From the sequence record SRR20825006_870: a stretch of 20,000 nucleotides of DNA. One strand, 5' to 3'. Numbering within the stretch: position 1 is the stretch's first letter; every line of letters begins with the position of its first letter. This document shows positions 2,027-19,254 of this stretch, in pieces. The translations under genes were made by a program, and so were the position numbers. The notes under the pieces are model-generated. The model was given only the letters and a program-made list of their open reading frames with translations, did not search any database and was not told the origin of the DNA.

Positions 2027-2089
2027 CCGGCTTCAAAAAACTTGGCACCCTTTATTGCGGGATTGTTGAATTGGGGCAAGCCTTTTCCT

Positions 2090-2131: not shown

Positions 2132-2153
2132 CAATATTGGGACGGAGGCGACT

Positions 2154-2552
2154 ATGCCGCATTTGAGCATAGAATACTCAGCCAACCTGGCTGATAAGAT
2201 TGATATGAACGCACTTTGTCATGCGCTGCATGACGTGATGATCAATGCAGGGCCATTTGAAAAAGGCGGCGTGCGCGTGCGCGCTTTCCGCGCAGATCAT
2301 TATGCCATTGCGGATTTGCATGTGGAAAATGCATTTGTCGATATCAATTTGCGCATTGGTCGAGGCCGCAGCCAAGAAGACAAAAAGCAAGTGGGCGAGG
2401 CGCTGATCGCACGTGCTCAAGCGGAATTGGCATCGCTTTTTGAAACCGAACATTTTGCTCTTTCACTCGAAATTCGCGAAATTGACGCCGAGTTAAGTTG
2501 GAAGCGCAACACCATCCATAAACGCATTCGAGCAACAGGATCTAACGCATGA
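2154..2552 (+). CDS. hpaF: 5-carboxymethyl-2-hydroxymuconate Delta-isomerase (HpaF/HpcD, tautomerase superfamily)
   Basis: MPHLSIEYSANL start gives the catalytic Pro-1; GGVRVRA, IGRGRS and KRNTIH motifs; good RBS before ATG 2154. Confidence 0.92.
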   Translation: MPHLSIEYSANLADKIDMNALCHALHDVMINAGPFEKGGVRVRAFRADHYAIADLHVENAFVDINLRIGRGRSQEDKKQVGEALIARAQAELASLFETEHFALSLEIREIDAELSWKRNTIHKRIRATGSNA

Positions 2553-4063
2553 CCGACCTGAAGACCAATATTGAAAAGGCACAATCCTATTTAGAACGCT
2601 TTCGCAAAGAGGGTGTGTTGAACCATATTGCAGGGCAATCAGTTGCAGCAGATAGCGGCGAGCAGTTCGAAATTATCTCGCCGGTTGATCTGGAGCCGAT
2701 TGCAAAGGTTGCGCGTGGCGGTGCGTCAGATATCGACAAGGCAGCAAAAGCGGCAAAAGCAAGCTTTGCGGAATGGGTCGCGATGTCGGGCAAAGAACGC
2801 AAAAAACTGTTGCACCGCATTGCGGATGCGATTGAGGCGCGGGCCGAAGAAATTGCATTTGTTGAAAGCATGGATACGGGCCAAGCCATTCGCTTCATGT
2901 CGAAAGCCGCTTTGCGCGGGGCGGAGAATTTCCGCTTTTTCGCGGATCGTGCGCCAATGGCCCGCGACGGTGAATCCTTGCGTGCCAACAATCAATTGAA
3001 CATCACAGCACGTTCGCCAATCGGCCCAGTGGGGATCATCACCCCATGGAACACGCCGTTTATGCTGTCAACCTGGAAAATCGCCCCAGCGCTAGCGGCA
3101 GGCTGCACAATTGTACACAAGCCTGCAGAATTTTCGCCACTCACCGCGCGCCTATTGGTGGAAATTGCCGAAGAGGCCGGCCTGCCCAAAGGCGTGTGGA
3201 ACCTGGTGAATGGCTTTGGCGAAGATGCCGGCAAGGCGCTGACTGAACATCCTGACATCAAGGCCGTGGGCTTTGTGGGCGAAAGCCGCACGGGCTCCAT
3301 GATCATGAAGCAGGGCGCAGACACACTAAAACGCTTCCACTTTGAATTGGGCGGCAAAAACCCAGTGGTGGTTTTTGATGATGCCGATTTGGACCGCGCC
3401 GCAGATGCAGCCGTGTTCATGATCTACTCACTGAACGGCGAGCGCTGCACCTCTTCCTCACGCTTGCTGGTGCAATCATCAATCTATGATGAGTTCACTG
3501 CCAAGGTGGCGGAGAAAGCTAAGAACATTAAAGTGGGGCACCCGCTTGACCCGCAAACTGTGGTCGGCCCGTTGATCCATCCAGTGCACGAAAAGAAGGT
3601 GCTGGAATATCTTGAGATCGGCCCAAAGGAAGGCGCGACTGTTGCTGCTGGCGGCAAGAAGGCGGAAGGGTTCACCGGCTGCTATGTGGAGCCGACCTTA
3701 TTCACCAATGTCACCAACGATATGCGCATCGCTCGGGAAGAGATTTTTGGCCCCGTATTGAGCGCCATGAAATTTGACAGCGAAGAAGAAGCGCTGAGCA
3801 TCGCCAACGACACCGAATATGGCCTCACGGGCTATGTGTGGACCTCAGATGTGACACGCGCTTTGCGCTTCACCGATCAGCTCGAAGCGGGCATGATCTG
3901 GGTAAATTCAGAAAATGTACGCCATCTGCCATCGCCATTTGGCGGCGTGAAAAGTTCTGGCATCGGCCGCGATGGCGGCGATTGGTCTTTCGATTTCTAT
4001 ATGGAAACAAAGAACATCGCTTTTGCCACCACTGCGCATGCCATTCCAAAATTGGGTGGCTAA
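2549..4063 (+). CDS. hpaE: 5-carboxymethyl-2-hydroxymuconate semialdehyde dehydrogenase (HpaE/HpcC)
   Basis: ALDH motifs ITPWNTPFMLSTWKIAPALA, ELGGK, SLNGERCT, WVNSENVRHL; ATGA overlap with hpaF. Confidence 0.95.
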   Translation: MTDLKTNIEKAQSYLERFRKEGVLNHIAGQSVAADSGEQFEIISPVDLEPIAKVARGGASDIDKAAKAAKASFAEWVAMSGKERKKLLHRIADAIEARAEEIAFVESMDTGQAIRFMSKAALRGAENFRFFADRAPMARDGESLRANNQLNITARSPIGPVGIITPWNTPFMLSTWKIAPALAAGCTIVHKPAEFSPLTARLLVEIAEEAGLPKGVWNLVNGFGEDAGKALTEHPDIKAVGFVGESRTGSMIMKQGADTLKRFHFELGGKNPVVVFDDADLDRAADAAVFMIYSLNGERCTSSSRLLVQSSIYDEFTAKVAEKAKNIKVGHPLDPQTVVGPLIHPVHEKKVLEYLEIGPKEGATVAAGGKKAEGFTGCYVEPTLFTNVTNDMRIAREEIFGPVLSAMKFDSEEEALSIANDTEYGLTGYVWTSDVTRALRFTDQLEAGMIWVNSENVRHLPSPFGGVKSSGIGRDGGDWSFDFYMETKNIAFATTAHAIPKLGG

Positions 4064-4125
4064 GCCCACCCCACAAATAAGAATTGAGTTTGCGGTTTTA
4101 GACCGCGTTGAGGAGATCCGTTAAA

Positions 4126-5106
4126 ATGCCTGTACCCAAGAGTAATTTATATCCCGACTTCAACATTGTTCGCCTGTCTCATGTGGAATTTATGGTGACC
4201 GATTTGGCGGCCAGCAAAGCTTTTTATGCTGATACGCTTGGGTTGCAAATCTCTTATGAAGATAGCGAAACAGTGTTTTTGCGTGCTTTGGAAGAACGCA
4301 ATCATCACTGTATCATTCTACGCAAAGGCCAAAAAGCTGAAGCCAATGTGTTGGGCTTTAAGGTCTATGATGAGCAGGATTTGGACAAGGCTGAAATCTA
4401 TTTCAAAGAAAAGGGCCTGCCCACCGAATGGATTGAGCGTCCGCATCAGGGCCGCACTTTGCGCACTCAGGATTTGCATGGCATCCCGCTGGAATTCTAT
4501 GCGCGCATGAACCAGCTCGACCCAATCCATCAGCAATATAAGCTTTATAAAGGCGTGCGCCCCTTGCGCATTGACCACTTCAACTGCTTCTCCACCAATG
4601 TGGATGAAAGCGTGGCCTTTTATAATGATCTCGGCTTCCGCGTGACCGAATATACCGAAGATGAAGAGAGCAAAAAACTTTGGGCAGCGTGGATGCACCG
4701 CAAAGGTGGCGTGCACGACATGGCCTTCACCAATGGCCGTGGCCCCCGCTTGCACCATACGGCCTTTTGGGTGCCAAACCCGTTGGCCATTATCGACTTG
4801 CTCGATTTGATGTCCACTACAGGCTATCTCGAAAACATTGAACGTGGCCCTGGCCGTCACGGCATTTCAAATGCGTTTTTCCTCTATATCCGAGACCCAG
4901 ATGGCCACCGGATTGAGATCTATTGTTCGGACTATATGACCGTTGATCCAGACCTTGAGCCGATCAAATGGGATTTGAAAGATCCGCAGCGGCAAACCCT
5001 TTGGGGGGCGCCAGCACCGCGCAGCTGGTTTGAGGAAGGCACGACTTTTGCCAATACCGAAATCAGCGACAGCCAATTGGCCGCGCAGCCTATTGTGGCG
5101 CCATAA
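4126..5106 (+). CDS. hpaD: 3,4-dihydroxyphenylacetate 2,3-dioxygenase (VOC-fold extradiol type)
   Basis: Metal-ligand motifs RIDHFN, LHHTAF and RIEIY, plus GGVHDMAFTNGRGPRLHH and ERGPGRHGISNAFFLY; RBS AGGAG at 4111-4115, ATG at 4126. Confidence 0.95.
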   Translation: MPVPKSNLYPDFNIVRLSHVEFMVTDLAASKAFYADTLGLQISYEDSETVFLRALEERNHHCIILRKGQKAEANVLGFKVYDEQDLDKAEIYFKEKGLPTEWIERPHQGRTLRTQDLHGIPLEFYARMNQLDPIHQQYKLYKGVRPLRIDHFNCFSTNVDESVAFYNDLGFRVTEYTEDEESKKLWAAWMHRKGGVHDMAFTNGRGPRLHHTAFWVPNPLAIIDLLDLMSTTGYLENIERGPGRHGISNAFFLYIRDPDGHRIEIYCSDYMTVDPDLEPIKWDLKDPQRQTLWGAPAPRSWFEEGTTFANTEISDSQLAAQPIVAP

Positions 5107-5108
5107 AG

Positions 5109-5213
5109 CGAACCCACTGGCGTTGGGCGGGGCGAAGATAACGGCAAGGCGAGAACTTTTTGAGCACTGAGCCGTTGACCTTTTAACGCCATCCCAACGC
5201 CAAGAGGCGTTTG
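5109..5213. repeat. Long imperfect intergenic inverted repeat (candidate MITE/REP-like element or mRNA stability hairpin)
   Basis: Nested pairings: TGGCGTTGGG (5118-5127) with CCCAACGCCA (5193-5202), GGCG (5131-5134) with CGCC (5187-5190), AACGGC (5140-5145) with GCCGTT (5171-5176). Confidence 0.6.
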
Positions 5214-5241
5214 ACTTGAACGGCTAACAAAGGAAAGCGAC

Positions 5242-6705
5242 ATGAAACTGAACGACCCCAAATTGCTCCGCGAAGCCCTGCCAGTTGCTGGTAAATGGAT
5301 CGAAACCAGCGATGATATGCTGACGGTCAAAAACCCATCCACCGGCGACATTGTGGGCAAGCTGCCCAAAATTGGCGCTGAAGAAGTGGAAGAAGCGATT
5401 GCCGCTGCGGCCAAAGCGCAAAAGCAATGGGCCAAACGCACCGCAAAAGAGCGGTCACAGATTCTGCGTCGCTGGTTTGAATTGATGATGGAACATCAGG
5501 ATGACCTCGCGGCCATTCTGACCCTTGAGCAAGGCAAACCGCTTTCCGAAGCCAAAGGCGAAATCGCCTATGGCGCAAGCTTTATTGAATGGTTCGCCGA
5601 AGAGGCACGCCGCGTTTATGGCGATTTGATCCCGGCGCACCGTACCGATAGCCGCATCATGGTGATGAAGCAGCCCGTTGGCGTTGTGGCGGCCATCACG
5701 CCGTGGAATTTCCCCAATGCCATGATCACCCGCAAAGCCGGACCTGCTTTGGCGGCAGGGTGTGCCATGGTGCTAAAGCCCGCGTCGCAAACCCCGTTCT
5801 CGGCGATTGCATTGGCCGTGCTGGCGGAACGTGCCGGGTTGCCCATGGAATTGTTCTCCGTGGTCACCGGCTCCTCCAAAACCATTGGCGACACACTGAC
5901 CGCCAGCGATGTGGTGCGCAAAATCACCTTTACCGGCTCCACGGAAGTGGGGGCGATGCTCTATGAGCAAAGCGCGCCAACCATCAAAAAACTCGGCTTG
6001 GAATTGGGCGGCAATGCGCCCTTTATTGTGTTCGACGATGCTAATGTGGATGACGCGGTTGACGGAGCAATCATCGCCAAGTTCCGCAATAATGGCCAGA
6101 CATGTGTGTGCGCCAATCGGGTTTATGTGCAAGCCAATATCTATGATGAATTTGCGCAAAAGCTGAAAGAAGCATTGCAGAAACTGAAAACCGGCGATGG
6201 ATTTGAAGATGATGTGACCTTCGGGCCGCTGATCGATCAGGGCGCGGTTGAAAAGGTGGAAGAACATATTGCGGATGCCAAGCAAAAGGGCGCTGAAGTT
6301 ACCTTGGGTGGTCAGCGCCACAGCTTGGGCGGTACCTTCTTTGAACCGACCATCATGACCGGCGTCACCCAAGATATGGCCGTGGCGACGGAAGAAACTT
6401 TTGGTCCCGTTGCGCCGCTGTTCAAGTTCGAGAGCGAAGCCGATGTGGTGCAGATGGCCAATGACACTGAATTTGGCCTTGCCTCTTATTTCTACGCCAA
6501 TGACCTCAGCCGCGTTTGGCGCGTCGCTGAGGAATTGGAATATGGCATGGTGGGCGTAAACACCGGGCTTATCTCCACTGCGGAAGCACCGTTTGGTGGC
6601 GTCAAACATTCCGGACTGGGCCGCGAAGGTTCCCACTATGGCTTAGATGAATTTTTAGAACTCAAATATGTCTGCCTCGGCGGCATCAAGGAAAATGAGG
6701 AATAA
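5242..6705 (+). CDS. gabD: NAD(P)-dependent succinate-semialdehyde dehydrogenase
   Basis: EQGKPLSEAKGEIAYGASFIEWFAEE, AITPWNFPNAMITRK, LELGGNAPF, KFRNNGQTCVCANR, GLGREGS. Confidence 0.95.
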   Translation: MKLNDPKLLREALPVAGKWIETSDDMLTVKNPSTGDIVGKLPKIGAEEVEEAIAAAAKAQKQWAKRTAKERSQILRRWFELMMEHQDDLAAILTLEQGKPLSEAKGEIAYGASFIEWFAEEARRVYGDLIPAHRTDSRIMVMKQPVGVVAAITPWNFPNAMITRKAGPALAAGCAMVLKPASQTPFSAIALAVLAERAGLPMELFSVVTGSSKTIGDTLTASDVVRKITFTGSTEVGAMLYEQSAPTIKKLGLELGGNAPFIVFDDANVDDAVDGAIIAKFRNNGQTCVCANRVYVQANIYDEFAQKLKEALQKLKTGDGFEDDVTFGPLIDQGAVEKVEEHIADAKQKGAEVTLGGQRHSLGGTFFEPTIMTGVTQDMAVATEETFGPVAPLFKFESEADVVQMANDTEFGLASYFYANDLSRVWRVAEELEYGMVGVNTGLISTAEAPFGGVKHSGLGREGSHYGLDEFLELKYVCLGGIKENEE

Positions 6706-6706
6706 T

Positions 6707-7579
6707 ATGACCAATCGGGCGCGCATCGCCACCTTTAAGCGCAACAACAAGCTGGGCTATGGGGCCATCACCGACACAGGCGTCGTGGACCTTTCTGCCC
6801 GCTTTGGCTCCAAATATGCAGGGTTGCGTGAAGTGATCGAAGCGGGCGCGCTGCCCGAATTGGTTGAGGCCGCAAAAGGCCAGCCCGACGATTTTGGTTT
6901 GGATGAGATTTCCTATGAAATTCCTATTCAGAATCCAGAGAAATTGATTTGCGTGGGCGTTAACTTCCCTAACCGAAATGAAGAATATAAGGACGGGCAA
7001 GAGGCACCGCCAAACCCGTCACTTTTCATCCGGTTCCCACGCTCCTTCACTGGCCATGACCAAGCTTTGGTCCGCCCTCACGCCTCGCCACAATTGGATT
7101 ATGAAGGCGAGATCGTGTTGGTGATCGGCAAAGGCGGTCGGCACATTGCGGAAGAAGACGCGTTGGACCATGTGGCGGCCTTGACCTTGTGCAATGAAGG
7201 CACAATCCGCGATTGGGTGCGCCATGCCAAGTTCAATGTGACCCAAGGCAAAAACTTTGACGATACGGGCGCCATCGGCCCTTGGTTGGTGCCGTTTGAA
7301 GGCGAAGAGCAATTGGCCGATGTGCGCCTCACCACCAAGGTGAATGGCGAAGTCCGTCAGGATGATCGCACCTCTCGCATGATTTTCAGCTTCAGAAAAT
7401 TGATCAATTATATTTCGACCTTCACCACCTTGGTGCCCGGCGACGTGATCGTGACCGGCACACCAACAGGCGCAGGCGCACGGCTTGATCCGCCACAATG
7501 GCTGAAGCCCGGTGATGTGATCGAAGTAGAAGCGGAAGGCATTGGCCTGTTGCGTAATACAGTGCGGGATGAGGACTAA
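6707..7579 (+). CDS. hpaG: Fumarylacetoacetate hydrolase family protein, probable HpaG-type isomerase/decarboxylase (single FAH domain)
   Basis: KLICVGVNF, LDYEGE, QGKNFD, GPWLV, PGDVIVTGTP motifs; positioned inside the hpa operon; start at ATG 6707 directly after gabD. The family call is strong; the exact activity is inferred from context. Confidence 0.8.
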   Translation: MTNRARIATFKRNNKLGYGAITDTGVVDLSARFGSKYAGLREVIEAGALPELVEAAKGQPDDFGLDEISYEIPIQNPEKLICVGVNFPNRNEEYKDGQEAPPNPSLFIRFPRSFTGHDQALVRPHASPQLDYEGEIVLVIGKGGRHIAEEDALDHVAALTLCNEGTIRDWVRHAKFNVTQGKNFDDTGAIGPWLVPFEGEEQLADVRLTTKVNGEVRQDDRTSRMIFSFRKLINYISTFTTLVPGDVIVTGTPTGAGARLDPPQWLKPGDVIEVEAEGIGLLRNTVRDED

Positions 7580-7580
7580 A

Positions 7581-8384
7581 ATGATCAGTGATGATGATGC
7601 CAAAAAGCTGGCGGAAGAACTGCACAATGCCGAGGAAACGCGGCAGCAAATTCCGCTGATCTCCAAGCGGTTTCCGGAGGCAGAACTGGCCGATGCCTAT
7701 AAGGTGCAAGATGCCTGGGTGGCCCATAAATATGGGTTGGGGCGTCAACGCATTGGGTGGAAAATTGGCCTCACGTCAAAAGCCATGCAGGCGGCATTGA
7801 ACATCACCACGCCCGATTCCGGCGTGTTGTTTGACGATATGGCGTTTGAAGATGGCGCAACAGTGCCAAAAGATCGCTTTATCCAACCGCGCATTGAAGC
7901 GGAAATTGCATTCGTTTTGAAAGCACCACTGAAAGGCGACAAGGTCACCATGTTCGATGTGCTGAACGCCACGGACTATGTGATCCCGTCATTGGAGATC
8001 TTGGACACGCGGGTTGTGCGCAAAGACGCAGACACAGGCCAGATGCGCACCATTGTCGACACGGTATCAGATAATGCGGCGAATGCCGGGCTGGTGCTGG
8101 GTGGCCGTGCCATGCGGGTTGATGAGGTAGATTTACGTTGGATCGGCGCCATCGTGCAGCGCAATGGCGTGGTGGAAGAAACTGGCCTTGGCGCAGGCGT
8201 GCTCAATCACCCGGCCATGGGCATTGTGTGGCTGGTGAAGCGGCTGGCGCAATTTGACATTGGCTTGGCACGCGGCGAGATTGTGCTTTCCGGCTCTTTC
8301 ATCCGCCCCGTGGAAACCAGCCACGGCGACACCATCATGGCAGACTTCGGCCCCTTGGGCACCGTCAGCACCTACTTCGAATAA
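7581..8384 (+). CDS. hpaH: 2-oxo-hept-4-ene-1,7-dioate hydratase (HpaH/HpcG)
   Basis: GWKIGLTSKAMQ, PRIEAEIAF, DTVSDNAANAG, EETGLGAGVLNHPA, VLSGSFIRP; RBS GAGG before ATG 7581. Confidence 0.95.
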   Translation: MISDDDAKKLAEELHNAEETRQQIPLISKRFPEAELADAYKVQDAWVAHKYGLGRQRIGWKIGLTSKAMQAALNITTPDSGVLFDDMAFEDGATVPKDRFIQPRIEAEIAFVLKAPLKGDKVTMFDVLNATDYVIPSLEILDTRVVRKDADTGQMRTIVDTVSDNAANAGLVLGGRAMRVDEVDLRWIGAIVQRNGVVEETGLGAGVLNHPAMGIVWLVKRLAQFDIGLARGEIVLSGSFIRPVETSHGDTIMADFGPLGTVSTYFE

Positions 8385-8395
8385 GGAACATCACC

Positions 8396-9199
8396 ATGCC
8401 AGCACCCACCAACAAATTTAAAGCCGCCATCCTGAAAGGCGAAAAGCAGATCGGGCTGTGGATGGGCCTCGCCAATGCCTATACGGCTGAAATTTGCGCC
8501 GGGGCAGGCTTTGATTGGCTGGTTATTGATGGCGAACATGCCCCCAATGATCTGCAATCCACTTTGAGCCAATTGCAAGCTTTGTCCAACTATCCGGTGA
8601 ACCCAGTGGTGCGGGTGCCGATTGGCGAAACCTGGTTGATCAAACAAGTATTGGACCTTGGGGCGCAAACCGTTTTGGTACCCATGGTGGAAAGTGCTGA
8701 ACAGGCGAAAGAGCTGGTGCGGGCGATTAAATATCCCCCCGCTGGCGTGCGCGGCGTTGGCGCGGCGCTGGCGCGAGCATCGCAGTTCAACCGCATTGGC
8801 GATTATCTGCAAACGGCAAATGATCAAACCTGCCTGATTGTACAGGTGGAAAGCCAAGTCGGCGTTGAGGCGATCGAAGAGATCGGTCAGATCGAGGGCG
8901 TGGATGGCATTTTTATCGGGCCTGCTGATTTGGCCGCAGATATGGGCTATCTGGGCCGCCCCGGCGAGCAGGTGGTGAAAGACGCGGTGCTTGATGGCAT
9001 CGCAAGAATTGTCGCCACAGGCAAAGCCGCAGGCATTTTGAGCGCGGATAAGGCTTTTGCGCGCGCGTGTTTAGACCAAGGCGCAAGCTTTGTGGCGGTC
9101 GGCACAGACGTAACTCTGTTCTCAGGTGCCACCAGCAAATTGGCTGAAGAATTCACTGGTGCGGGCCACGCTGCACCTGCAGGTGACAAGACCTACTAA
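8396..9199 (+). CDS. hpaI: 4-hydroxy-2-oxoheptanedioate aldolase (HpaI/HpcH)
   Basis: GFDWLVIDGEHAPN, KQVLDLGAQTVLVPMV, YPPAGVRGVG, GIFIGPADL. Confidence 0.93.
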   Translation: MPAPTNKFKAAILKGEKQIGLWMGLANAYTAEICAGAGFDWLVIDGEHAPNDLQSTLSQLQALSNYPVNPVVRVPIGETWLIKQVLDLGAQTVLVPMVESAEQAKELVRAIKYPPAGVRGVGAALARASQFNRIGDYLQTANDQTCLIVQVESQVGVEAIEEIGQIEGVDGIFIGPADLAADMGYLGRPGEQVVKDAVLDGIARIVATGKAAGILSADKAFARACLDQGASFVAVGTDVTLFSGATSKLAEEFTGAGHAAPAGDKTY

Positions 9200-9409: not shown

Positions 9410-10360
9410 ATGCTGATACAACCAGAAACACGCATACAACATGCGGTGAACGATGCGTTTCAACCGCTCGCGCTGGATATTTTTGGCTCATTGGTGGTGG
9501 GGTTTAACGACGCCGAGCCGCAAAGTGCTGAGCTGCACACGGCAAACTTTGGCGCTTGCCGATTGTCGCACATCACGGCAAGTGCCCATTCGGTTGATGG
9601 CGCGCGCGCGGTGCGTCGTTCGTTCGACCCGGACGCCATTAAGCTGATTTTGCAAAATGAGGGCCATTCACGCCTGAAACAAGCAAATGTTGAACTGGAG
9701 TTGGTACCCGGCAGCTGGGTGGCCTATGATCCAACCAAATCCTATAGCTTGGATAACCTATCGCCCGTGAAGCAATTGATCCTTCAATTGCCGCGCCATA
9801 ATATTCCAGCCGCCGCATTGCAGCAATTGATGCGCCCCAACAAGCTGGATATTGCCGAACGGAGCTTGCACAAAATTTTGTACACCATGATGTCTTCAGC
9901 ATTGGACCAAGTGGATGGATTAGATGCCGAAGGGCAATCTGGTGTAGGCGATGCGCTGCTCCATTTGGCCAAAACATTGGTGCTGCGCATCGATCCAGAG
10001 GATTTGGAGCGCTCTGCCGTTTCCCTCAAAACCCTGCGCATGCGGGTTAAAGCCTATATCGAAACCAATCTGTCACGATCAGATTTGGACATTGCCGAAC
10101 TGGCACAAAAAATGGGGTGTTCGCGCCGCTATTTGTTCCGCGCTTTCGAGCAAGACGAAACCACCCCATCAGAATTTTTGTGGGGGCTTCGGCTGGATAA
10201 ATCTTTGGAACGTTTGTCTTCGCCCAAATTTGCAGGAGCATCAATTTCGGAGATCGCGTTCTCTTGCGGCTTTTCATCAAGTTCGCACTTTTCACGCGCC
10301 TTCAGAAAACGCTTTGATATTTCACCAAGCGAAGCGCGGCATGCCAAAACGTTGAATTAA
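9410..10360 (+). CDS. AraC-family transcriptional activator, FeaR/TynR-like
   Basis: C-terminal AraC double HTH (IAELAQKMGCSRRYLFRAF; ISEIAFSCGFSSSSHFSRAFRKRFDISP). The N-terminal domain has the FeaR-type pattern (ELVPGSWVAYDPTKSY, QLILQLPR). RBS GGAGG. Confidence 0.88.
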   Translation: MLIQPETRIQHAVNDAFQPLALDIFGSLVVGFNDAEPQSAELHTANFGACRLSHITASAHSVDGARAVRRSFDPDAIKLILQNEGHSRLKQANVELELVPGSWVAYDPTKSYSLDNLSPVKQLILQLPRHNIPAAALQQLMRPNKLDIAERSLHKILYTMMSSALDQVDGLDAEGQSGVGDALLHLAKTLVLRIDPEDLERSAVSLKTLRMRVKAYIETNLSRSDLDIAELAQKMGCSRRYLFRAFEQDETTPSEFLWGLRLDKSLERLSSPKFAGASISEIAFSCGFSSSSHFSRAFRKRFDISPSEARHAKTLN

Positions 10361-10404: not shown

Positions 10405-10797
10405 CTAAGGCTTTAAAGCATCTGCCACCAATTTTGTGTCGGCAAACTGTTCAAACTTGACCACTTTGCCGTCCTCAACTTCCCACACATGGGTGACACG
10501 CGCTTCAAAGCTTTTGCCTGTTGATTTGGCCGTGGCTGCATAAAGACCGACACCCACGACATGGGAACCAGCGTCTAGCAATTGGTTGAGGGTGAAGGTG
10601 AAATTATCGAACAGATCGCCAAGGGCGAAGAACACGTTCTTCTTCACTTCCTCCGGCCCAATATAGGTGCCAGCGCACGGAAAACCCGCAGCTTCAGTCC
10701 AGGCACAATCATCGGCAAGTGGGGCCAGCATGCCCTCCAGATCACCCCGATCACTGGCGGCATAATGGGCTTTTACAATCTCATAAGCTTCAGACAT
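10405..10797 (-). CDS. SnoaL-like / NTF2-family protein (ketosteroid isomerase-like fold)
   Basis: 130 aa; HYAASDRGDLEGML, WTEAAGFPCAGTYIGPEEV, HVWEVEDGKVVKFEQFADT; RBS GGAG. Confidence 0.88.
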   Translation of the reverse strand: MSEAYEIVKAHYAASDRGDLEGMLAPLADDCAWTEAAGFPCAGTYIGPEEVKKNVFFALGDLFDNFTFTLNQLLDAGSHVVGVGLYAATAKSTGKSFEARVTHVWEVEDGKVVKFEQFADTKLVADALKP

Positions 10798-10806
10798 TAG
10801 GTCTCC

Positions 10807-11595
10807 TTAAACCGGCTCTTGGCCCGGCAGATAGTAGGTCATGGATGCTTTGCGGATGAATGCGCCGGCCGGGTTGTTGGCAATGGAGCCGTCGCCCTCA
10901 ATGCCCAAAAATTTGCCGGTAGAGCGCATTTCATTAAAGTCGTGGAAGAAGGTGGAGGCCACCGGGATCAAATATTCCCGGAAGGTGAAAATATATTGGC
11001 CTTCATCAAACTTATAAGTGGTCGCCAAATCCACATCCCCATGGCCACGCTGCACGCCCACCAAATTCTGCCACGCATAGCGCGTGGACGAGAGATAGGT
11101 GTGTTCATACACATGGTTGGGGCTATAGGTGTAATGCGCCCGCAAGCCGATCAAATCGCGCGTTTCTGCGGGCTCTGGTCCGCTAATCTCTACGCCATCC
11201 AATGTGCCGGGGCGGAAAATCTGTTCCACCTGTGGGTCGCCCGCTGCTTCTTCAACACTGCGAATATGCGCGTAGATGGAGAGCACACGACCTGTGCTTA
11301 CATTGATGATCACCGTGTCCGCATCTTTGGGGCGATCTGCAAAGACCATATCGACAAAATAGGTGTTGGGCGCCAAATTGATGACCTCACACCAATCGCT
11401 GCCGCTTTGGCCATTTTCTTGCCAATCCACCTTGTCTTTTGCGGTGAATTTTAGGGCCAGTTTGCGCCCATCATTAAAGCTGATGGCAAAATCCTTGCCG
11501 ATCAACTCGTCGGTTGTGGGCAGGCGATTATGATCAATGCCAGCGGCAAAATCATCGTAATTCTTCCAGTCTGCGGGTCTCGCTTGTTCGCTCAT
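10807..11595 (-). CDS. moaF: MoaF-family protein (two tandem calycin / phenolic-acid-decarboxylase-like domains), function uncharacterised
   Basis: 262 aa with an internal repeat (TDELIGK.../TRDLIGLR...). Motifs YTYSPNHVYEHTY, WQNLVGVQRG and YIFTFREYLIPV are recognised as MoaF-like. It lies downstream of an SDR, as in the Klebsiella monoamine-regulon moaEF operon. It is not a molybdenum cofactor gene. Confidence 0.78.
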   Translation of the reverse strand: MSEQARPADWKNYDDFAAGIDHNRLPTTDELIGKDFAISFNDGRKLALKFTAKDKVDWQENGQSGSDWCEVINLAPNTYFVDMVFADRPKDADTVIINVSTGRVLSIYAHIRSVEEAAGDPQVEQIFRPGTLDGVEISGPEPAETRDLIGLRAHYTYSPNHVYEHTYLSSTRYAWQNLVGVQRGHGDVDLATTYKFDEGQYIFTFREYLIPVASTFFHDFNEMRSTGKFLGIEGDGSIANNPAGAFIRKASMTYYLPGQEPV

Positions 11596-11606: not shown

Positions 11607-12395
11607 CTATTCAACAAATGCCAATGTGGGCAGATCAACCGTGCCAGCGCCGCCATCGACGGTGACGATGGCGCCATTCATCATCGACGCCTCCGCACTG
11701 GCCAAAAAGCAGATCACATTGGAGATTTCTTCCGGTGTGGCCGCGCGCCCCAAAGGCACGTCTTTCGTGACCAGTTGATAGGCCTCATCCACTGAGTTCA
11801 GCCCGTGCTTTTCAATCAGCACTTGCATTTGATCGTCAGCCATGGCGGTGCGCACCCAACCGGGGCATACCGTGTTGGTGCGGACGCCCTTGCGGCCATA
11901 ATCGCGCGCCAGCGATTTCGCTAGACCAATCAAACCATGCTTCATGGTCACATAGCCCGCCGCATCCGGCCCGGCAAACAGCCCAGCAATGGAGGCCACA
12001 GCCACAATGTTGCCTTTGGCTTCAATCAGGGCGGGCAGAGCAGCGCGGGCCGTTACAAACGCCGTGTCTAGATTTGCGCGGGTGGCGTTCGCCCACGTCT
12101 CATCGCTCATGGAGATGGTGGGGCCAACACCATGGCCACCCGCATTGGCGATCAAAATATCCAAATGGCCATATTGTTTCACAAGGCTCTGGACCACTTG
12201 GCCCATCGCGTCTGCGTCCGCTGCATCTGCCGCATAGATATCTGCCTCAATATCAGCAGCCACAGCTTCCAATGGTTCTTTGCGGCGACCCACCAAAGCC
12301 ACCTTGCCGCCTTCAGCGGCGATCCGCTTGGCAACCTCGGCCCCAATGCCGGTGCCGCCACCCGTGATCAGCGCAACTTTATCTTTAAATCTCAT
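11607..12395 (-). CDS. Short-chain dehydrogenase/reductase (positional equivalent of Klebsiella monoamine-regulon MoaE)
   Basis: TGGGTGIG, NAGG, VAVAS, YVTMK, CPGWVRTAM motifs; strong RBS GAGGAGG before ATG 12395. Confidence 0.9.
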   Translation of the reverse strand: MRFKDKVALITGGGTGIGAEVAKRIAAEGGKVALVGRRKEPLEAVAADIEADIYAADAADADAMGQVVQSLVKQYGHLDILIANAGGHGVGPTISMSDETWANATRANLDTAFVTARAALPALIEAKGNIVAVASIAGLFAGPDAAGYVTMKHGLIGLAKSLARDYGRKGVRTNTVCPGWVRTAMADDQMQVLIEKHGLNSVDEAYQLVTKDVPLGRAATPEEISNVICFLASAEASMMNGAIVTVDGGAGTVDLPTLAFVE

Positions 12396-12499
12396 CTGTT
12401 CCTCCTCGGTCCGATCAGAGCCTAGGTTTGGCGAGATCGCGTGTCGCGCCCCGGTGCGCATTCAAGATTGATCAGGAGTGCAAAGGCCGCCCTAAGCCG

Positions 12500-12592: not shown

Positions 12593-13999
12593 ATGAGTTC
12601 TTACGGCCTAGTGATCAATGGTGAAAAAATCAGCACGGCAGACTATCTCGATGTCTTAAACCCGGCAGACCAATCAGTGGTGGGGCAGATGCCCCTTGCC
12701 AGCACGGATCAACTTGATGACGCAGTGCGCGCCGCCCAAGCGGCCTTTCTGGCGTGGCGTGATTTGGATGACAAAGAACGGCAGAAATTGTGCAATCAAT
12801 TGGCAGATAAGCTGGAAGCGCACCATGAGGAATTGGCCAAACTGATCACCGCCGAACAGGGCAAGCCACTTGTGCAATTGGGTTCACGCTTTGAGCTGGA
12901 TGGCGCCATCGGCTGGAGCCGCGCGACTGCCGCGCTGGACATGCCAATCGAAGTGATTGAAGAAACTCCTGATGGTCGTGTCGAACTGCACCGCAAACCC
13001 ATTGGCGTTGTGGGCTCCATTACCCCATGGAACTATCCTGTGATGATCGGGTGCTGGCACATCATCCCGGCCTTGCGGGCGGGCAACACGGTGGTGATTA
13101 AACCGTCGCCGCTCACCCCGCTTTCCACTTTGCGAATGGTCGAACTATTCAATGAAGTTTTGCCCAAAGGCGTTTTGAACGCGGTGACGGGCGACGACCA
13201 ATTGGCTGCTGCCATGTCTGCCCACCCTGGCTTCAACAAAATGGTATTCACCGGCTCAACCGCCACGGGCAAAAAGATCATGGCATCGGCGGTGGATAGC
13301 TTGAAACGCTTAACGTTGGAACTGGGGGGCAATGATGCTGGGATTGTGCTGCCTGATGCTGACCCGAAACAAGTGGCCGAAGGCCTGTTTTGGGGCGCGT
13401 TCCTGAACAATGGGCAGACCTGTGCGGCGCTTAAACGACTCTATGTCCATGCGAATATTTATGATGCAGTGTGCACCGAAATGGCGGCCATTGCGCAAAA
13501 TGTAAAAACCGGACCGGGCATGGAAGAAGACAGTGTGTTCGGCCCCATCCAAAACCGCAATCAATTTGAAAAAGTCAAAGCTTTGGTGGACGATGCTAAG
13601 GCGCGTGGTGCGCGCATTTTAACGGGTGGCGAGCCAATGGCGGGGGAGGGCAATTTTTATCCCATCACGCTGGTGGCGGACATTGAGCAAGATGCACGGT
13701 TGGTGGATGAAGAACAGTTTGGCCCGGCTCTGCCCATCGTCAAATATCACGATATAGACGAAGCGGTGAAGATGGCCAACGCATCTCCCATGGGGCTAGG
13801 CGGTTCAGTTTGGTCGAGCGACAAAGCCAAAGCCAAACAAATCGCTAGTCGGCTCGAATGCGGATCTGTCTGGATCAACAATCACGGGGCCATTCAACCC
13901 AACGCGCCCTTCGGTGGCGTCAAGCAATCGGGCATCGGCCTTGAATTCGGCATGGAAGGCCTCAAAGAGTTCACGGTTACCCAAACCGTGTTTGTTTAA
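12593..13999 (+). CDS. Aldehyde dehydrogenase, probably acting on an (hydroxy)phenylacetaldehyde
   Basis: SITPWNYP, FTGSTATGKK, TLELGGNDAGIV (catalytic Glu), NNGQTCAALKRLYVH (catalytic Cys), EEQFGP; RBS GAGGAGGAGG. Substrate is inferred from context. Confidence 0.9.
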   Translation: MSSYGLVINGEKISTADYLDVLNPADQSVVGQMPLASTDQLDDAVRAAQAAFLAWRDLDDKERQKLCNQLADKLEAHHEELAKLITAEQGKPLVQLGSRFELDGAIGWSRATAALDMPIEVIEETPDGRVELHRKPIGVVGSITPWNYPVMIGCWHIIPALRAGNTVVIKPSPLTPLSTLRMVELFNEVLPKGVLNAVTGDDQLAAAMSAHPGFNKMVFTGSTATGKKIMASAVDSLKRLTLELGGNDAGIVLPDADPKQVAEGLFWGAFLNNGQTCAALKRLYVHANIYDAVCTEMAAIAQNVKTGPGMEEDSVFGPIQNRNQFEKVKALVDDAKARGARILTGGEPMAGEGNFYPITLVADIEQDARLVDEEQFGPALPIVKYHDIDEAVKMANASPMGLGGSVWSSDKAKAKQIASRLECGSVWINNHGAIQPNAPFGGVKQSGIGLEFGMEGLKEFTVTQTVFV

Positions 14000-17698: not shown

Positions 17699-17725
17699 TC
17701 CACCTTGCGGATCGAAAGTCTATTC

Positions 17726-18067
17726 ATGACCAATAAAAATAACACAGCCCCAATGGGCGAATATGATCCACGACTGATTTTGCTGGACCCGAACGACAAT
17801 ATATTTGGCGTGGCCCGGCCCATTCGCGCGGGCGAAATGCTTATGATTGATGGCGAGCTTGCGCAACTCGACCAACAGGCGGGCATGGGCTTTAAAATTG
17901 CGGCCCGCAACATCGAACAAGGCGAACATATTTTAAAATATGGCGCCGTGATTGGCGTGGCCAATCAACATATCACCAAGGGCCAATTGGTGCATGTGCA
18001 CAATATTGAAAGCACCTATATGGCCAACACCGTGACAACAGGCACCAGAAAAGAGGTTATCTCATGA
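17726..18067 (+). CDS. UxaA/GarD-family dehydratase small subunit (stand-alone SAF domain)
   Basis: LDPNDNIFGVARPI...GFKIAARNIEQGEHILKYGAVIGVA...GQLVHVHNI. Start is uncertain (17726 or 17753). Confidence 0.85.
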   Translation: MTNKNNTAPMGEYDPRLILLDPNDNIFGVARPIRAGEMLMIDGELAQLDQQAGMGFKIAARNIEQGEHILKYGAVIGVANQHITKGQLVHVHNIESTYMANTVTTGTRKEVIS

Positions 18068-19254
18068 AGGGCTATTTACGCAGCGACGGCCGCAAAGGCA
18101 TCCGCAACATTGTCACAGTGGTTTATCTGGTTGAATGCGCGCACCACGTGGCGCGGCAAGTGGCGCAGCGCTTTGCGCCACAAGATGTGCAGGTGATCGG
18201 TTTTCCGGGGTGTTATCCAAATGAATATGCCCAATCCATGATGGAACGACTTTGCACCCACCCCAATGTGGGCGCCGTTTTGCTGGTTTCACTCGGATGT
18301 GAGGGCTTCAACAAGCTAAAGCTGAAAGATGTGGTTGCTGAAACTGGCCGCCCGGTTGAAGTGTTGACCATTCAGGGCGAAGGCGGCACGGGTAAAACGA
18401 TGCAAAAAGGCATCGAATGGGTCGAGCAACAATTGCAAGGTTTGAAAGAGGCACCAACGGTCGAAATGGACTGGTCGGAACTGGTGGTGGGCACCATTTG
18501 CGGCGGGTCAGACGGTACCAGTGGCCTCACCGCTAACCCTGCAATTGGCCGCGCGTTTGACCAATTTGTGGACAAAGGTGCGGCATGCATCTTTGAAGAA
18601 ACTGGCGAGTTGATCGGATGCGAGCCGCATATGGCGAAACGCGCGGCAACCCCTGAGCTGGCTAAAGAGCTGGTGCAAAGCATCGAAAAAGCCGCGCGCT
18701 ACTACGAGGTGCTGGGCTATCCAAGTTTTGCGCCGGGCAATGCCGATGGTGGCCTTTCGACCATTGAAGAGAAATCCATGGGCGCTTACGCCAAATCTGG
18801 CGCGTCGACCATTTCCGGCCTAATCAAGCCTGGCGATATTCCGCCCTCAGGCGGGCTTTATCTTTTGGACGTGGTGCCAGATGGTGAAGTGCGCTTTGGC
18901 TTCCCCAACATTGTCGACAATGCCGAGATCGTTGAACTGATCGCGTGCGGCTCGCATGTGATTTTGTTTGCCACGGGCCGCGGCTCGGTTGTGGGCTCCG
19001 CCATTTCACCCGTGGTGAAAGTGTGCGCCAATCCGCTCACCTATAAACGCATGGCCGACGATATGGACGTGAACGCAGGCAAAATTTTGGACAATGAGGC
19101 CAGCCTTGATGAGGTGGGCCAAGAGATTGTTGATCTTGTGGCGCAGGTGGGCGATGGCGAAATGACCCGCTCTGAAGCGCTGGGCCATACCGAATTTATT
19201 CTCACCTATAAGAGTTTTGAACCGATTGGACCGGCCTGTTTGCCGGCCGCATAG
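18064..19254 (+). CDS. UxaA/GarD-family (altronate dehydratase-like) sugar-acid dehydratase large subunit
   Basis: GYLRSDGRKGIRN, HPNVGAVLLVSLGCE, CGGSDGTSGLTANPAIG, PGNADGGLSTIEEKSMGA, FATGRG; own RBS GAGG at 18053-18056 and ATGA overlap. Confidence 0.92.
   Translation: MKGYLRSDGRKGIRNIVTVVYLVECAHHVARQVAQRFAPQDVQVIGFPGCYPNEYAQSMMERLCTHPNVGAVLLVSLGCEGFNKLKLKDVVAETGRPVEVLTIQGEGGTGKTMQKGIEWVEQQLQGLKEAPTVEMDWSELVVGTICGGSDGTSGLTANPAIGRAFDQFVDKGAACIFEETGELIGCEPHMAKRAATPELAKELVQSIEKAARYYEVLGYPSFAPGNADGGLSTIEEKSMGAYAKSGASTISGLIKPGDIPPSGGLYLLDVVPDGEVRFGFPNIVDNAEIVELIACGSHVILFATGRGSVVGSAISPVVKVCANPLTYKRMADDMDVNAGKILDNEASLDEVGQEIVDLVAQVGDGEMTRSEALGHTEFILTYKSFEPIGPACLPAA

Follow-up and report, generated by a model that had tools for sequence, protein, structure and literature searches.

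Introduction

What is the function of a protein that is named after molybdenum cofactor (Moco) biosynthesis and is encoded beside genes of the homoprotocatechuate pathway? This is the question raised by the present locus, which has been analysed in a stretch of 20,000 nucleotides, called the window in the following. The MoaF family is widespread among bacteria, with 335 representatives at 50% identity, and many of its members bear a misleading 'molybdenum cofactor' name. In an earlier note on this DNA, the C-terminal domain of MoaF was read as a cofactor-free relative of phenolic acid decarboxylases (PADs) which removes a benzylic hydroxyl group by way of a quinone methide. Our analysis partly supports this interpretation. 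MoaF is probably an as yet undescribed enzyme in the breakdown of phenolic compounds, because its C-terminal half is PAD-like with the key Tyr and Glu residues and its fixed operon lies beside the hydroxyphenylacetate pathway. The operon, the SDR-MoaF fusions and the frequent adjoining of hpa genes and of a FeaR-like regulator are new beyond the earlier note, in which the SDR and SnoaL partners and the homologous, degenerate N-terminal barrel had been overlooked.

Domain architecture of MoaF

The gene and its two domains are located as follows.

10807-11595, minus strand: moaF gene (protein P0002, 262 amino acids), an open reading frame with both Pfam MoaF domains and a match to 4q51_A
11200-11571, minus strand: N-terminal barrel, residues 9-132, modelled by AF2 with 8 strands and related by hhalign to both the C-barrel and PAD as a homologue
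10840-11169, minus strand: PAD-like barrel at the C-terminus (residues 143-252), which VIA-align and conservation mark as the candidate catalytic domain

The protein belongs to the MoaF family by both of its Pfam domains (PF10703 and PF17409), which score above their gathering values: MoaF N at residues 9-112 (E 1.7e-30, 105.5 bits against a cut-off of 23.3) and MoaF_C at residues 143-251 (E 1e-38, 132 bits against a cut-off of 22.1). The stretch 10906-11157 encodes residues 147-230, inside the C-terminal domain, and the MoaF residues quoted for it are real, as all of them were found as written in the minus-strand frame and their codons were checked. In the AF2 model (pLDDT 96.7) the protein is folded into two tandem 8-stranded barrels; its sole helix by DSSP is a short N-terminal one, and C-terminal helices are absent. 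The same two-barrel architecture is present in 4Q51, the 'putative molybdenum cofactor biosynthesis protein F' of Burkholderia cenocepacia J2315 from structural genomics, which is a member of the same family (VIA-align Z 34.2, rmsd 1.7 A, 248 residues, 30% identity; phmmer E 2.6e-27). 4Q51 shares the Tyr residues at 155 and 157 and the Glu residues at 164 and 207 with the window protein, whereas it has Leu at the H185 position and carries the WQC/DRC Cys residues. A search of the ESM Atlas with MoaF returned MoaF clusters only.

The two barrels are related to each other (hhalign 96.8%, E 2.1e-10). Nearly invariant columns of the family concentrate in the C-barrel, and hydrophobic residues occupy the positions of the N-barrel that are equivalent to the catalytic ones of PADs. 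Judged from its sequence, the N-barrel is a homologous but degenerate copy which has lost the polar residues. MoaF would be a cytoplasmic protein whose two tandem calycin-type barrels have arisen by internal duplication, roughly a fused and asymmetric counterpart of the PAD homodimer.

Structural relationship with phenolic acid decarboxylases

The nearest solved structures to the C-barrel are 4Q51, then 5HAL and then the PADs. The PAD-type fold is evident from VIA-align (Z 11.1-13.5, rmsd mostly 2.2-2.5 A, 110-116 residues aligned), and all PAD matches fall on residues 140-262 of the MoaF model, i.e. on the C-domain only. With Foldseek, the PADs rank straight after 4q51 (E 5e-5 to 2e-3); once 4q51, the PADs and 5hal are set aside, the structural neighbours that come next are avidins and binding proteins of the lipocalin-like type (VIA-align Z 7-10). 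5HAL is a protein of 103-115 amino acids from Burkholderia vietnamiensis, titled 'putative beta-lactamase' or uncharacterised, which matches the C-domain better than the PADs do (VIA-align Z 15.7, rmsd 1.7 A, 101 residues); unlike MoaF it has one barrel only, and the identity is 13%.

When the MoaF family profile was searched against all PDB sequences with hmmsearch, 19 distinct sequences were obtained at E <= 10, namely 4q51, 15 PAD sequences (E 1.3e-5 to 0.13), 5hal (E 0.0097) and two RibF sequences (E 0.5 and 1.2). The hhalign comparison with the PADs gave E 1.4e-4 for the C-domain profile at a probability of only 52%, and E 5.8e-7 for the N-domain at a probability of 92.2%. The Pfam model PA_decarbox (PF05870) did not match P0002 itself at E <= 0.01, and its cut-off of 24.6 is exceeded in the C-domains of the MoaF relatives P0194 (25.0 bits) and P0244 (27.6 bits). 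The hhalign comparison, the PDB profile search, the Pfam matches of relatives and the VIA-align results place the similarity between MoaF and the PADs beyond chance. The C-domain had been likened to a PAD by eye, and Foldseek, VIA-align and the PDB profile search agree on a PAD-type barrel.

In passages of PMC10915792, Tyr11 and Tyr13 of PAD hold the p-hydroxyl group, Arg41 holds the carboxylate and Glu64 acts with them. Glu64 is described as the general acid/base of a quinone-methide mechanism in passages of PMC10116590, where the additional hydration of hydroxystyrenes by PADs is also reported. Decarboxylation appears as the native activity in passages of PMC10915792, PMC10116590 and PMC3025021, the last of which also describe the PAD homodimer and the pocket residues of FADase. 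The PADs compared here (PF05870; B. subtilis PadC 2P8G, L. plantarum PDC 2GC9/2W2A and Enterobacter FADase 3NX1) have the barrel fold in common with MoaF and are, like it, cofactor-free. The Tyr-x-Tyr motif, the pocket Tyr (FADase Tyr27, Y163 in MoaF) and the catalytic Glu stand in the same register in both, as does an aromatic residue (W175 in MoaF) where B. subtilis PAD has Tyr31, and the PAD homodimer, as described in part of PMC3025021, is mirrored by the two fused barrels. On the other hand, a PAD is a homodimeric single barrel of about 160-180 amino acids with C-terminal helices, whereas the 262-residue MoaF has two barrels in one chain, the first being degenerate, and lacks the C-terminal helices, the carboxylate Arg and Thr66/Thr68. 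MoaF further differs by the extra conserved residues R152, H165, Y167, D187, D189 and R206 and is always paired with an SDR.

Candidate active site residues and their conservation

Five natural PADs from genomes served as the PAD reference, in which the key residues are Y19, Y21, R49 and E72. Numbering offsets were taken from mutant names in PDB titles, from passages of papers and from the aligned structural ranges, and by these the four residues are Tyr18, Tyr20, Arg48 and Glu71 of L. plantarum and Tyr11, Tyr13, Arg41 and Glu64 of B. subtilis. Conservation was counted over 100 MoaF family representatives. The segments concerned are given below.

11125-11133, minus strand: Tyr155-Thr156-Tyr157, placed by hhalign on the two PAD tyrosines that hold the p-hydroxyl
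11095-11109, minus strand: conserved strand Y163-E164-H165-T166-Y167, with Y163 on the PAD pocket Tyr (FADase Tyr27 in passages of PMC3025021)
11029-11049, minus strand: R183-G-H185-G-D187-V-D189, a loop and strand start at the PAD Arg position, with two conserved acidic residues
10975-10977, minus strand: Glu207, placed by hhalign on the PAD catalytic Glu (B. subtilis Glu64)

In the hhalign register, Y155 (codon 11131-11133) and Y157 (11125-11127) lie on PAD Y19 and Y21, E164 (11104-11106) on E28 and E207 on E72, which is the register in which the tyrosines and the catalytic Glu had been paired by eye. The starts of the VIA-align ranges likewise match Y155/Y157 to Tyr11/Tyr13 in 2p8g and to Tyr18/Tyr20 in 2gc9. 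Conservation across the family had been expected for this set. It was found for Y157 (Tyr in 100/100 representatives), E164 (96/100) and E207 (97/100), but not for position 155, which is Tyr in 58/100, nor for position 185 (codon 11041-11043), which is His in 12/100 and Leu in 48/100; the full set of Y155, Y157, E164 and E207 is present in 54/100. Around them, Y163 (86/100), H165 (95/100), Y167 (98/100) and W175 (91/100), which occupies the B. subtilis Tyr31 position in hhalign, are well conserved. Y155, Y157, Y163, E164, W175 and E207 are invariant in the eight SDR-linked MoaFs, which represent four clades.

The PAD Arg is absent, as had been stated: no Arg is conserved at that position among the 100 representatives, and an Arg anywhere in 181-186 occurs in only 31/100, position 183 being Lys or Arg in 48/100. 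As a replacement for this Arg, H185 is not a feature of the family. Since His is found in only 12/100 at a position that is mostly Leu, H185 is a local feature of one clade, and among the eight SDR-linked MoaFs it occurs in the Hyphomicrobiales clade only. Moreover, because hhalign leaves R49 opposite a one-residue gap that separates G184 from H185, the description of H185 as standing in place of Arg depends on the placement of this gap.

hhalign offers no PAD counterpart for a number of conserved polar residues, namely R152 (89/100), H165, D187 (78/100), D/E189 (95/100; Asp in 71 and Glu in 24) and R206 (64/100, and 8/8 of the SDR-linked MoaFs). PAD Thr66 and Thr68 are not kept and align with L209 and P211/V212. 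His is present at position 176 in 54/100 and Cys at positions 177 and 191 in 77/100 and 50/100, respectively. These Cys residues are lacking in the window MoaF, which has N177 and A191, and in its 80 close relatives, and a Cys-based site cannot for this reason be general.

Operon organisation and pathway surroundings

The genes surrounding moaF that bear on its function are the following.

11607-12461, minus strand: SDR gene (adh_short_C2, E 2.9e-54), separated by 11 nt from moaF, which follows it in the same operon
10405-10797, minus strand: SnoaL_2/NTF2-like gene (SnoaL_2, E 3.3e-15), 9 nt downstream of moaF
12593-13999, plus strand: aldehyde dehydrogenase (ALDH; Pfam Aldedh), phenylacetaldehyde-dehydrogenase-like, divergent
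9410-10360, plus strand: AraC-family regulator, FeaR-like (AraC_binding_2 and HTH_18)
1592-9199, both strands: homoprotocatechuate meta-cleavage cluster, from NCBIfam and Pfam matches

The SDR, MoaF and SnoaL-like genes form a tight operon. Related loci were collected with a pattern derived from an 8-row alignment in a one-genome-per-species collection, where 477 of the 487 pattern-matched stretches encode a MoaF relative, and gene neighbours were counted over the best 80 of these 477 loci. In this set, the SDR gene stands immediately upstream of moaF on the same strand in 77/80 loci and a SnoaL-like gene immediately downstream on the same strand in 78/80. The SDR also adjoins moaF in 8/8 full-length loci examined, which comprise the window and 7 of the 9 matching genomes of a 401-genome sample, and the proteins P0168 and P0260 are SDR-MoaF fusions. 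In sequence searches of the PDB, the best matches of the SDR are generic dehydrogenases, and the nearest solved relatives of the SnoaL/NTF2-like protein are uncharacterised NTF2-like proteins; in NCBIfam, no model matches MoaF or the SnoaL-like protein.

By homology, the surroundings of MoaF appear to handle hydroxyphenyl-C2 compounds, as indicated by the hpa genes, the FeaR-like regulator and the phenylacetaldehyde-dehydrogenase-like ALDH. The meta-cleavage cluster begins with hpaR on the minus strand, followed on the plus strand by CHM isomerase, hpaE, hpaD, succinate-semialdehyde dehydrogenase, an hpaG-like gene, hpaH and hpaI, of which HpaR, HpaE, HpaD, HpaH and HpaI score above their NCBIfam cut-offs. 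The ALDH reaches 403.8 bits with the StyD model, below the cut-off of 850, and matches PDB 4o5h, 'Phenylacetaldehyde dehydrogenase', at E 4e-101. The AraC-family regulator matches the FeaR model at E 6.6e-36 with 124.2 bits, below the cut-off of 199. Among the best 80 of the 477 loci, a FeaR-like homologue is encoded downstream in 45, an HpaI homologue at most 5 kb upstream on the same strand in 29, and an ALDH at least 58% identical to that of the window within 5 kb in only 8. Where coordinates were read (e.g. L028), the HpaI homologue lies directly upstream of the SDR.

Other neighbours were also noted. In three other lineages an amidase, an HDAC-type deacetylase or a cyclase/formamidase-type gene is found beside or near the module, and in locus L074 a TRAP transporter adjoins the operon; TRAP transporters usually carry carboxylates. 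The Liv-type binding protein of related operons is nearest to amino-acid binders (E 8e-21 and weaker), a faint hint of an amine substrate. In G001, the nearest genome (98% complete), an HpaB-type 4-hydroxyphenylacetate hydroxylase was not found, and other hydroxylase types exist; a copper amine oxidase was likewise not found there, in a search which gave no signal for its E. coli control.

An SDR followed by MoaF is also the order of the Klebsiella aerogenes moaE-moaF operon, which Azakami et al. reportedly assigned in 1995, in Gene 164:89, to the monoamine regulon. In the gammaproteobacterial genome G251 the SDR-MoaF pair comes after atsB-atsA with a LuxR-type regulator close by, which we take to be the Klebsiella arrangement. 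G251 differs from the window in that its MoaF is 30% identical, no SnoaL-like gene follows, and the regulator and neighbours are others. The function of MoaE and MoaF is, to our knowledge, not established, and no functional study of MoaF or 4Q51 was retrieved in our literature search.

Proposed role of MoaF and alternative explanations

We tentatively propose that the PAD-derived MoaF, the SDR and the NTF2-like protein constitute an upper funnel to (di)hydroxyphenylacetaldehyde through quinone-methide loss of a benzylic group, a proposal which is plausible and still falls somewhat short of probable. MoaF would act as a single unit with the upstream SDR and, in Hyphomicrobiales, also with the downstream NTF2-like protein. 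We infer that the conserved residues of the C-barrel line one cavity, in which Tyr-x-Tyr would hold the phenolate oxygen, Glu would be the general acid/base, and Y163 and W175 would form an aromatic pocket, with no Arg to hold a carboxylate. The substrate of the trio would be a p-hydroxyphenyl or catechol compound that bears a side chain of two carbons and lacks a carboxylate. Its conversion would be the PAD hydration run backwards: the benzylic leaving group would be lost to give a p-quinone methide, the adjacent carbon would then be deprotonated to an enol or enamine, and tautomerisation or hydrolysis would yield the (di)hydroxyphenylacetaldehyde. The SDR might, for example, produce the benzylic alcohol from a ketone or hydroxy-aldehyde, the NTF2-like protein might serve as a tautomerase or imine hydrolase, and the neighbouring ALDH would oxidise the aldehyde to the acid that enters hpa meta-cleavage. 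The quinone-methide dehydratase suggested earlier is a chemically coherent candidate and fits the context of MoaF.

A more specific version concerns two orphan enzymes. Octopamine dehydratase (EC 4.2.1.87) and synephrine dehydratase (EC 4.2.1.88) are activities of Pseudomonas aeruginosa and Arthrobacter synephrinum which convert a p-hydroxyphenyl-ethanolamine into 4-hydroxyphenylacetaldehyde and ammonia or methylamine, feeding the hydroxyphenylacetate/homoprotocatechuate route. We know of no gene or sequence assigned to either EC number, and our literature search gave no relevant paper on these dehydratases. Their reaction would be the one hypothesised here for MoaF. It is rather doubtful, though worth stating, that MoaF is their missing gene, a cofactor-free PAD-derived lyase which with the SDR and the NTF2-like protein would provide an amine-oxidase-independent route into the homoprotocatechuate pathway. 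The lyase would take the benzylic hydroxyl from p-hydroxyphenyl or catechol ethanolamines and glycols by way of a quinone methide, and the compounds channelled by the route would be octopamine, noradrenaline and synephrine, or keto and N-acyl forms of these, in soil, plant-associated, marine and enteric bacteria.

A number of observations count against a dehydratase, among them the presence of Tyr155 in only 58/100 representatives and of the full residue set in 54/100, the loss of Thr66/Thr68, the TRAP transporter in L074, the few loci with a close ALDH and the 52% probability of the C-domain in hhalign. In addition, a simple dehydratase needs no SDR, yet the coupling with the SDR is the strongest signal of all. 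The conserved R152 and R206 could still bind a carboxylate, and the PAD-like site might instead serve a different reaction of the quinone-methide type, with a carboxylated substrate or another phenolic one, which we consider unlikely but deserving of attention. It might, for instance, decarboxylate the enol of 4-hydroxyphenylpyruvate without a cofactor to the enol of 4-hydroxyphenylacetaldehyde, with the SDR making the keto acid from a hydroxy acid and the NTF2-like protein as keto-enol tautomerase; or the benzylic hydroxyl of (di)hydroxymandelate might be lost reductively, with the SDR reducing the quinone methide. Every protein of the operon would then have a job, and decarboxylation is after all what PADs natively do (passages of PMC10915792, PMC10116590 and PMC3025021). 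R152 and R206, the latter in all eight SDR-linked MoaFs, and the Lys or Arg at position 183 in 48/100 suit a carboxylate, as does the TRAP transporter of L074, and many loci are without a dedicated FeaB-like ALDH within 5 kb, as would be expected if the product were an acid already. However, the carboxylate Arg of PADs is missing with no conserved basic residue there, the acidic D187 and D/E189 come after that loop, and the FeaR-like regulator and phenylacetaldehyde-dehydrogenase-like ALDH favour an aldehyde intermediate, with which only the 4-hydroxyphenylpyruvate version is compatible.

Strand alternation suggests that the extra polar residues may sit on the outer barrel face, and with them a different site at the domain interface. 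The working site could accordingly be sought in the inter-barrel cleft or on the outer face of the C-barrel, with chemistry unrelated to that of PADs and the Tyr/Glu residues as inherited scaffold; this, too, we judge improbable, though worth considering. The candidate residues, R152, H165, Y167, H/Q176, C/N177, D187, D189 and R206, might bind a metal in the His/Cys members. R152, H165, Y167, D187 and D/E189 (89, 95, 98, 78 and 95 per 100) match the PAD-like set in conservation, His176 (54/100), Cys177 (77/100) and Cys191 (50/100) are frequent, all are without PAD counterparts in hhalign, and in the model several would point opposite to Y155/Y157. Against this, the Cys residues are missing from the window protein as well as from its 80 close relatives, polar residues on the outer face may just form the interface between the barrels, and the most conserved polar residues, E207 and Y157, stand at PAD catalytic positions. 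A non-enzymatic MoaF, a calycin-type module that presents or sequesters a phenolic substrate or reactive aldehyde for the SDR, is quite unlikely in our estimate. Avidins and lipocalin-like binding proteins follow as structural neighbours (Z 7-10), operon and fusion with the SDR are what a non-catalytic subunit would show, and the N-barrel is clearly non-catalytic by its residues; but an invariant Tyr with nearly invariant Glu, Glu and His in a small barrel is more typical of catalysis, and the nearest characterised relatives are enzymes. Participation in Moco biosynthesis has next to no probability, being suggested by source names alone, such as 'molybdenum cofactor biosynthesis protein F'. 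No Moco gene is present among the 23 window ORFs scanned, which agrees with the earlier doubt about this label, nor in the scanned parts of the eight sampled loci and of four of the best 80 related loci (in the other 76, only homologues of eight chosen query proteins were sought). Furthermore, no NCBIfam model names MoaF, PADs are among its closest structures, and MoaF_C occurs in 0/14 well-known control genomes. The name MoaF presumably stems from the moaEF operon, which belongs to the monoamine (moa) regulon of Klebsiella.

Conclusion

This study provides the MoaF family with a concrete candidate active site, in a C-barrel which stands beside the PADs, and with a short list of candidate substrates. 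Which proteins are to be reconstituted together follows from the conserved SDR-MoaF-NTF2 module. If MoaF is indeed a dehydratase, genes would be at hand for two orphan EC numbers, a new reaction would be added to the few cofactor-free quinone-methide enzymes, a group used in biocatalysis, and the induction of Klebsiella moaEF by monoamines would be explained. If it is not, the conserved residues mapped here and the operon still leave a smaller field in which to look for the function of MoaF.

Domain architecture and naming of MoaF

The moaF gene lies in the middle of its operon, 11 nt after a gene for a short-chain dehydrogenase/reductase (SDR) and 9 nt before a SnoaL_2/NTF2-like gene, and Pfam recognises two domains in its product:

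10807-11595, minus strand: moaF ORF, 262-aa product
MoaF residues 9-112: MoaF N-terminal domain (Pfam, E 1.7e-30)
MoaF residues 143-251: MoaF_C domain (Pfam, E 1e-38)

Residues 147-230 correspond to window positions 10906-11157, and a codon-by-codon check located Y155, Y157, E164, H185 and E207 as the earlier note had stated. No NCBIfam model covers the protein. Its relatives are named 'MoaF C-terminal domain-containing protein' or 'molybdenum cofactor biosynthesis protein F' in the databases; among named records, a contig of Maritalea mobilis comes closest, at 98% protein identity. A role in molybdenum cofactor synthesis found no support. Two relatives of 547-592 aa (P0146 and P0258) carry the complete MoaF unit twice and hence four barrels. 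A 2068-aa immunoglobulin/Sushi-repeat protein (P0220) was also among the MoaF matches, with 10 matched stretches; it has no MoaF domain in Pfam, and the match is probably spurious.

Relationship of MoaF to phenolic acid decarboxylases

The search for MoaF representatives gave 335 proteins at E <= 1e-3. The family alignment (100 rows) holds the query and 99 proteins of 235-300 aa from the 150 listed of these, the other 51 of the 150 being fragments, fusions or long proteins. For comparison, 401 genomes from the phylum were scanned with Pfam PA_decarbox, 5 of which gave matches, and the five phenolic acid decarboxylases (PADs) aligned have Y19, Y21, R49 and E72 as key residues. Numbering offsets were set by PDB titles (L. 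plantarum mutants Tyr20Phe, Arg48Gln and Glu71Ser) and by published residues, namely Tyr21 and Tyr27 named for the Enterobacter enzyme FADase in an extract of PMC3025021 and Tyr11, Tyr13, Arg41 and Glu64 listed for B. subtilis PAD in an extract of PMC10915792.

With hhalign, the MoaF C-domain aligned to the PADs over 83 columns (E 1.4e-4, probability 52%), which placed Y155/Y157 on Y19/Y21 and E207 on E72 in agreement with the proposed catalytic set, and E164 on E28. The N-domain matched the same part of the PADs better than the C-domain did (92%, E 5.8e-7), and the two MoaF domains matched each other at 96.8% (E 2.1e-10). When the family profile was searched against all PDB sequences, 19 distinct sequences were found at E <= 10: 4q51 (the Burkholderia cenocepacia MoaF crystal structure), 15 PADs (E 1.3e-5 to 0.13), 5hal and two RibF (E 0.5 and 1.2). 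The C-domains of two family members pass the Pfam PA_decarbox threshold; the window MoaF lies below it.

The AlphaFold2 model built with the family alignment was confident (pLDDT 96.7, pTM 0.92) and contains two eight-stranded sets, at residues 35-132 and 151-252. Foldseek ranked 4q51 first (E 2.8e-20) and PAD entries directly after it (E 5e-5 to 2e-3). In VIA-align the Z-scores were 34.2 for 4q51, 15.7 for the small uncharacterised protein 5hal, 11.1-13.5 for seventeen PAD entries (rmsd mostly 2.2-2.5 A over 110-116 residues) and 8-10 for avidins, which came next. All the PAD alignments cover model residues 140-262. The aligned ranges start at model/PAD residues 145/1 in 2p8g (B. subtilis), 144/7 in 2gc9 (L. 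plantarum) and 142/6 in 3nx1 (FADase), and with the first ten residues taken as gap-free they put Y155/Y157 on Tyr11/13, Tyr18/20 and Tyr19/21, respectively. The structural register is thus the sequence register, and on the agreement of both alignments MoaF, as modelled, consists of two PAD-like barrels fused in tandem. PADs are described as homodimers in an extract of PMC3025021, so the fusion may mimic the PAD dimer.

The nearest structure to the C-barrel after 4q51 is 5hal, a single barrel of 103-115 aa deposited as 'putative beta-lactamase'. The MoaF profile matches its sequence, and the deposited label looks doubtful.

Conservation of the putative active site

Conservation in the 100 rows upheld part of the predicted set, with Y157 in 100, E207 in 97 and E164 in 96, but Y155 in 58 and H185 in only 12. 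Position 155 is otherwise Trp (11), His (6) or Phe (5), position 185 is Leu in 48, and Y155, Y157, E164 and E207 occur together in 54 rows. Other conserved positions are Y167 (98), G150 (98), G227 (96), H165 (95), G180 (93), W175 (91), R152 (89), Y201 (88) and Y163 (86). The absence of the PAD arginine was borne out, any Arg within 181-186 being present in only 31 of the 100 rows. The placing of H185 at its position held less well: the arginine aligns to no MoaF residue, its column being a gap flanked by G184 and H185. Among eight SDR-adjacent MoaFs from four clades, Y155, Y157, Y163, E164, H165, Y167, W175, D187, D189, Y201, R206 and E207 are invariant, and H185 is limited to the Hyphomicrobiales sequences, so it is not a family feature.

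When pocket residues reported for PADs were placed on MoaF by the same hhalign mapping, FADase Tyr21, Tyr27 and Leu45/Val46 correspond to Y157, Y163 and V181/Q182, FADase Ile41 to N177 (Cys in 77 of the 100 rows) and B. subtilis Tyr31 to W175. Unlike these, PAD Thr66 and Thr68 are not kept, their counterparts being L209 and P211/V212. Since the N-barrel has Leu, Ile or Phe at the Tyr-pair positions and no conserved acid, the C-barrel is the candidate active domain. From the PAD equivalences we infer that its conserved residues would share a cavity.

Genomic context

One flank of the operon carries a FeaR-like AraC regulator (124 bits, below the 199 cut-off), and the other a divergent aldehyde dehydrogenase (ALDH) whose best matches include phenylacetaldehyde dehydrogenases (StyD, 404 bits, below cut-off; PDB 4o5h, E 4e-101). 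Directly beyond the regulator is a catabolic cluster, and further away a locus of another kind:

1592-9199: complete homoprotocatechuate meta-cleavage (hpa) cluster
17705-19251: altronate/galactarate dehydratase split into two ORFs, first one of 120 aa with the SAF domain, then one of 396 aa with GD_AH (Pfam)

The dehydratase pair, with a GFO/IDH/MocA oxidoreductase on one side and an SDR on the other, appears to be a separate locus for sugar acids. HpaR, HpaE, HpaD, HpaH and HpaI exceed their NCBIfam cut-offs. A 4-hydroxyphenylacetate 3-hydroxylase of the HpaB type was not found in the nearest genome (98% complete); if the absence of this type holds, the hpa pathway would receive catechol-type substrates. 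The copper amine oxidase search (PF01179) had no match in the E. coli control genome, although E. coli K-12 carries tynA, so its negatives need caution.

MoaF_C gave matches in 9 of 401 sampled genomes and no match in the 14 controls. A full-length MoaF with both domains is present in seven of these nine, adjoined by an SDR in every case. One of these seven has the order atsB, atsA, SDR, MoaF with a LuxR-type regulator nearby, which fits the moaEF operon of the monoamine regulon reported for K. aerogenes. The loci of the other two genomes (L022 and L023) encode 580-609-aa proteins with the MoaF domains in the C-terminal half and no Pfam family at E <= 1e-4 in the N-terminal half.

In the best 80 of 477 related loci, which are closely akin to one another and therefore not independent, the same-strand gene just before moaF is an SDR in 77, and the gene just after it is SnoaL-like in 78. 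The same 80 include a FeaR-like gene (45), a same-strand HpaI homologue no more than 5 kb upstream (29; directly upstream of the SDR where coordinates were read, e.g. L028), an ALDH of any kind (46, of which only 8 have at least 58% identity to that of the window), a GMC oxidoreductase (22) and a Liv-type binding protein (16). L021 and the Mesorhizobium-type loci L084-L101 have GMC oxidoreductase and ALDH genes divergently upstream of SDR-MoaF-SnoaL and a Liv-type ABC transporter downstream, so that in this genus the conserved block is larger. Coupling of SDR and MoaF has Rosetta-stone support from two natural fusions of ~590 aa (P0168 and P0260), in which an SDR domain precedes the MoaF N and C domains; P0266 is a partial case with a weak SDR match (24.5 bits, below cut-off).

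A TRAP transporter stands beside the module in another lineage, and amide-cleaving enzymes (amidase, HDAC-type deacetylase, cyclase/formamidase-type protein) are beside or near it in three. Two of these neighbours hint at N-acylated amine substrates:

L064, 2928-4184: HDAC/acetylpolyamine-amidohydrolase-type gene, directly upstream of SDR-MoaF-SnoaL in one MAG
L016, 10370-11830: amidase-signature gene, directly upstream of MoaF-SDR-SDR in genome G287

Proposed mechanism and alternatives

In PADs, two tyrosines hold the p-hydroxyl and Arg41 the carboxylate (extract of PMC10915792), Glu64 serves as general acid/base in a mechanism that passes through a quinone methide, and hydroxystyrenes can be hydrated through the same intermediate (extract of PMC10116590). 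A pocket keeping the Tyr pair and Glu without the Arg would be well suited to the reverse of this hydration on a carboxylate-free substrate. The benzylic OH would depart to give a quinone methide, the next carbon would be deprotonated to an enol or enamine, and the final product would be an arylacetaldehyde, the usual partner of a FeaR-like regulator and ALDH, which would supply the hpa genes. By this analogy we tentatively put forward MoaF as a PAD-derived quinone-methide dehydratase whose arylacetaldehyde product would feed the ALDH and hpa genes, and such a reading fits the monoamine history of the moa name. The proposed reaction also matches the octopamine and synephrine dehydratase activities, which to our knowledge are orphan and on which our literature search found no paper; that MoaF accounts for these two in particular seems unlikely.

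The obligate SDR is the main fact which a dehydratase leaves unexplained. Its presence suggests that the module's true substrate and the substrate of MoaF differ by one redox step, the former being e.g. a phenacyl ketone or hydroxy-aldehyde that is reduced first; alternatively, the SDR may reduce the quinone methide. MoaF might instead catalyse some other quinone-methide reaction with a carboxylated compound, e.g. the enol of 4-hydroxyphenylpyruvate, which we consider improbable, or its active site might lie elsewhere and be made up of the conserved residues R152/H165/Y167/D187/D189/R206, which is doubtful to a similar degree. That it is a non-catalytic binding subunit appears more improbable still.

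The fold relationship between MoaF and PADs can be seen by anyone searching 4Q51, and our literature search found one paper that mentions 4Q51 but none discussing the relationship or giving a MoaF function. Three points appear to be new: the reading at residue level, the degeneracy of the N-barrel, and the conservation of the SDR-MoaF-NTF2 module, including its fusions and its linkage to hpa genes. Should MoaF prove to be a dehydratase of the type put forward, it would add a variant to the cofactor-free enzymes of the PAD kind.
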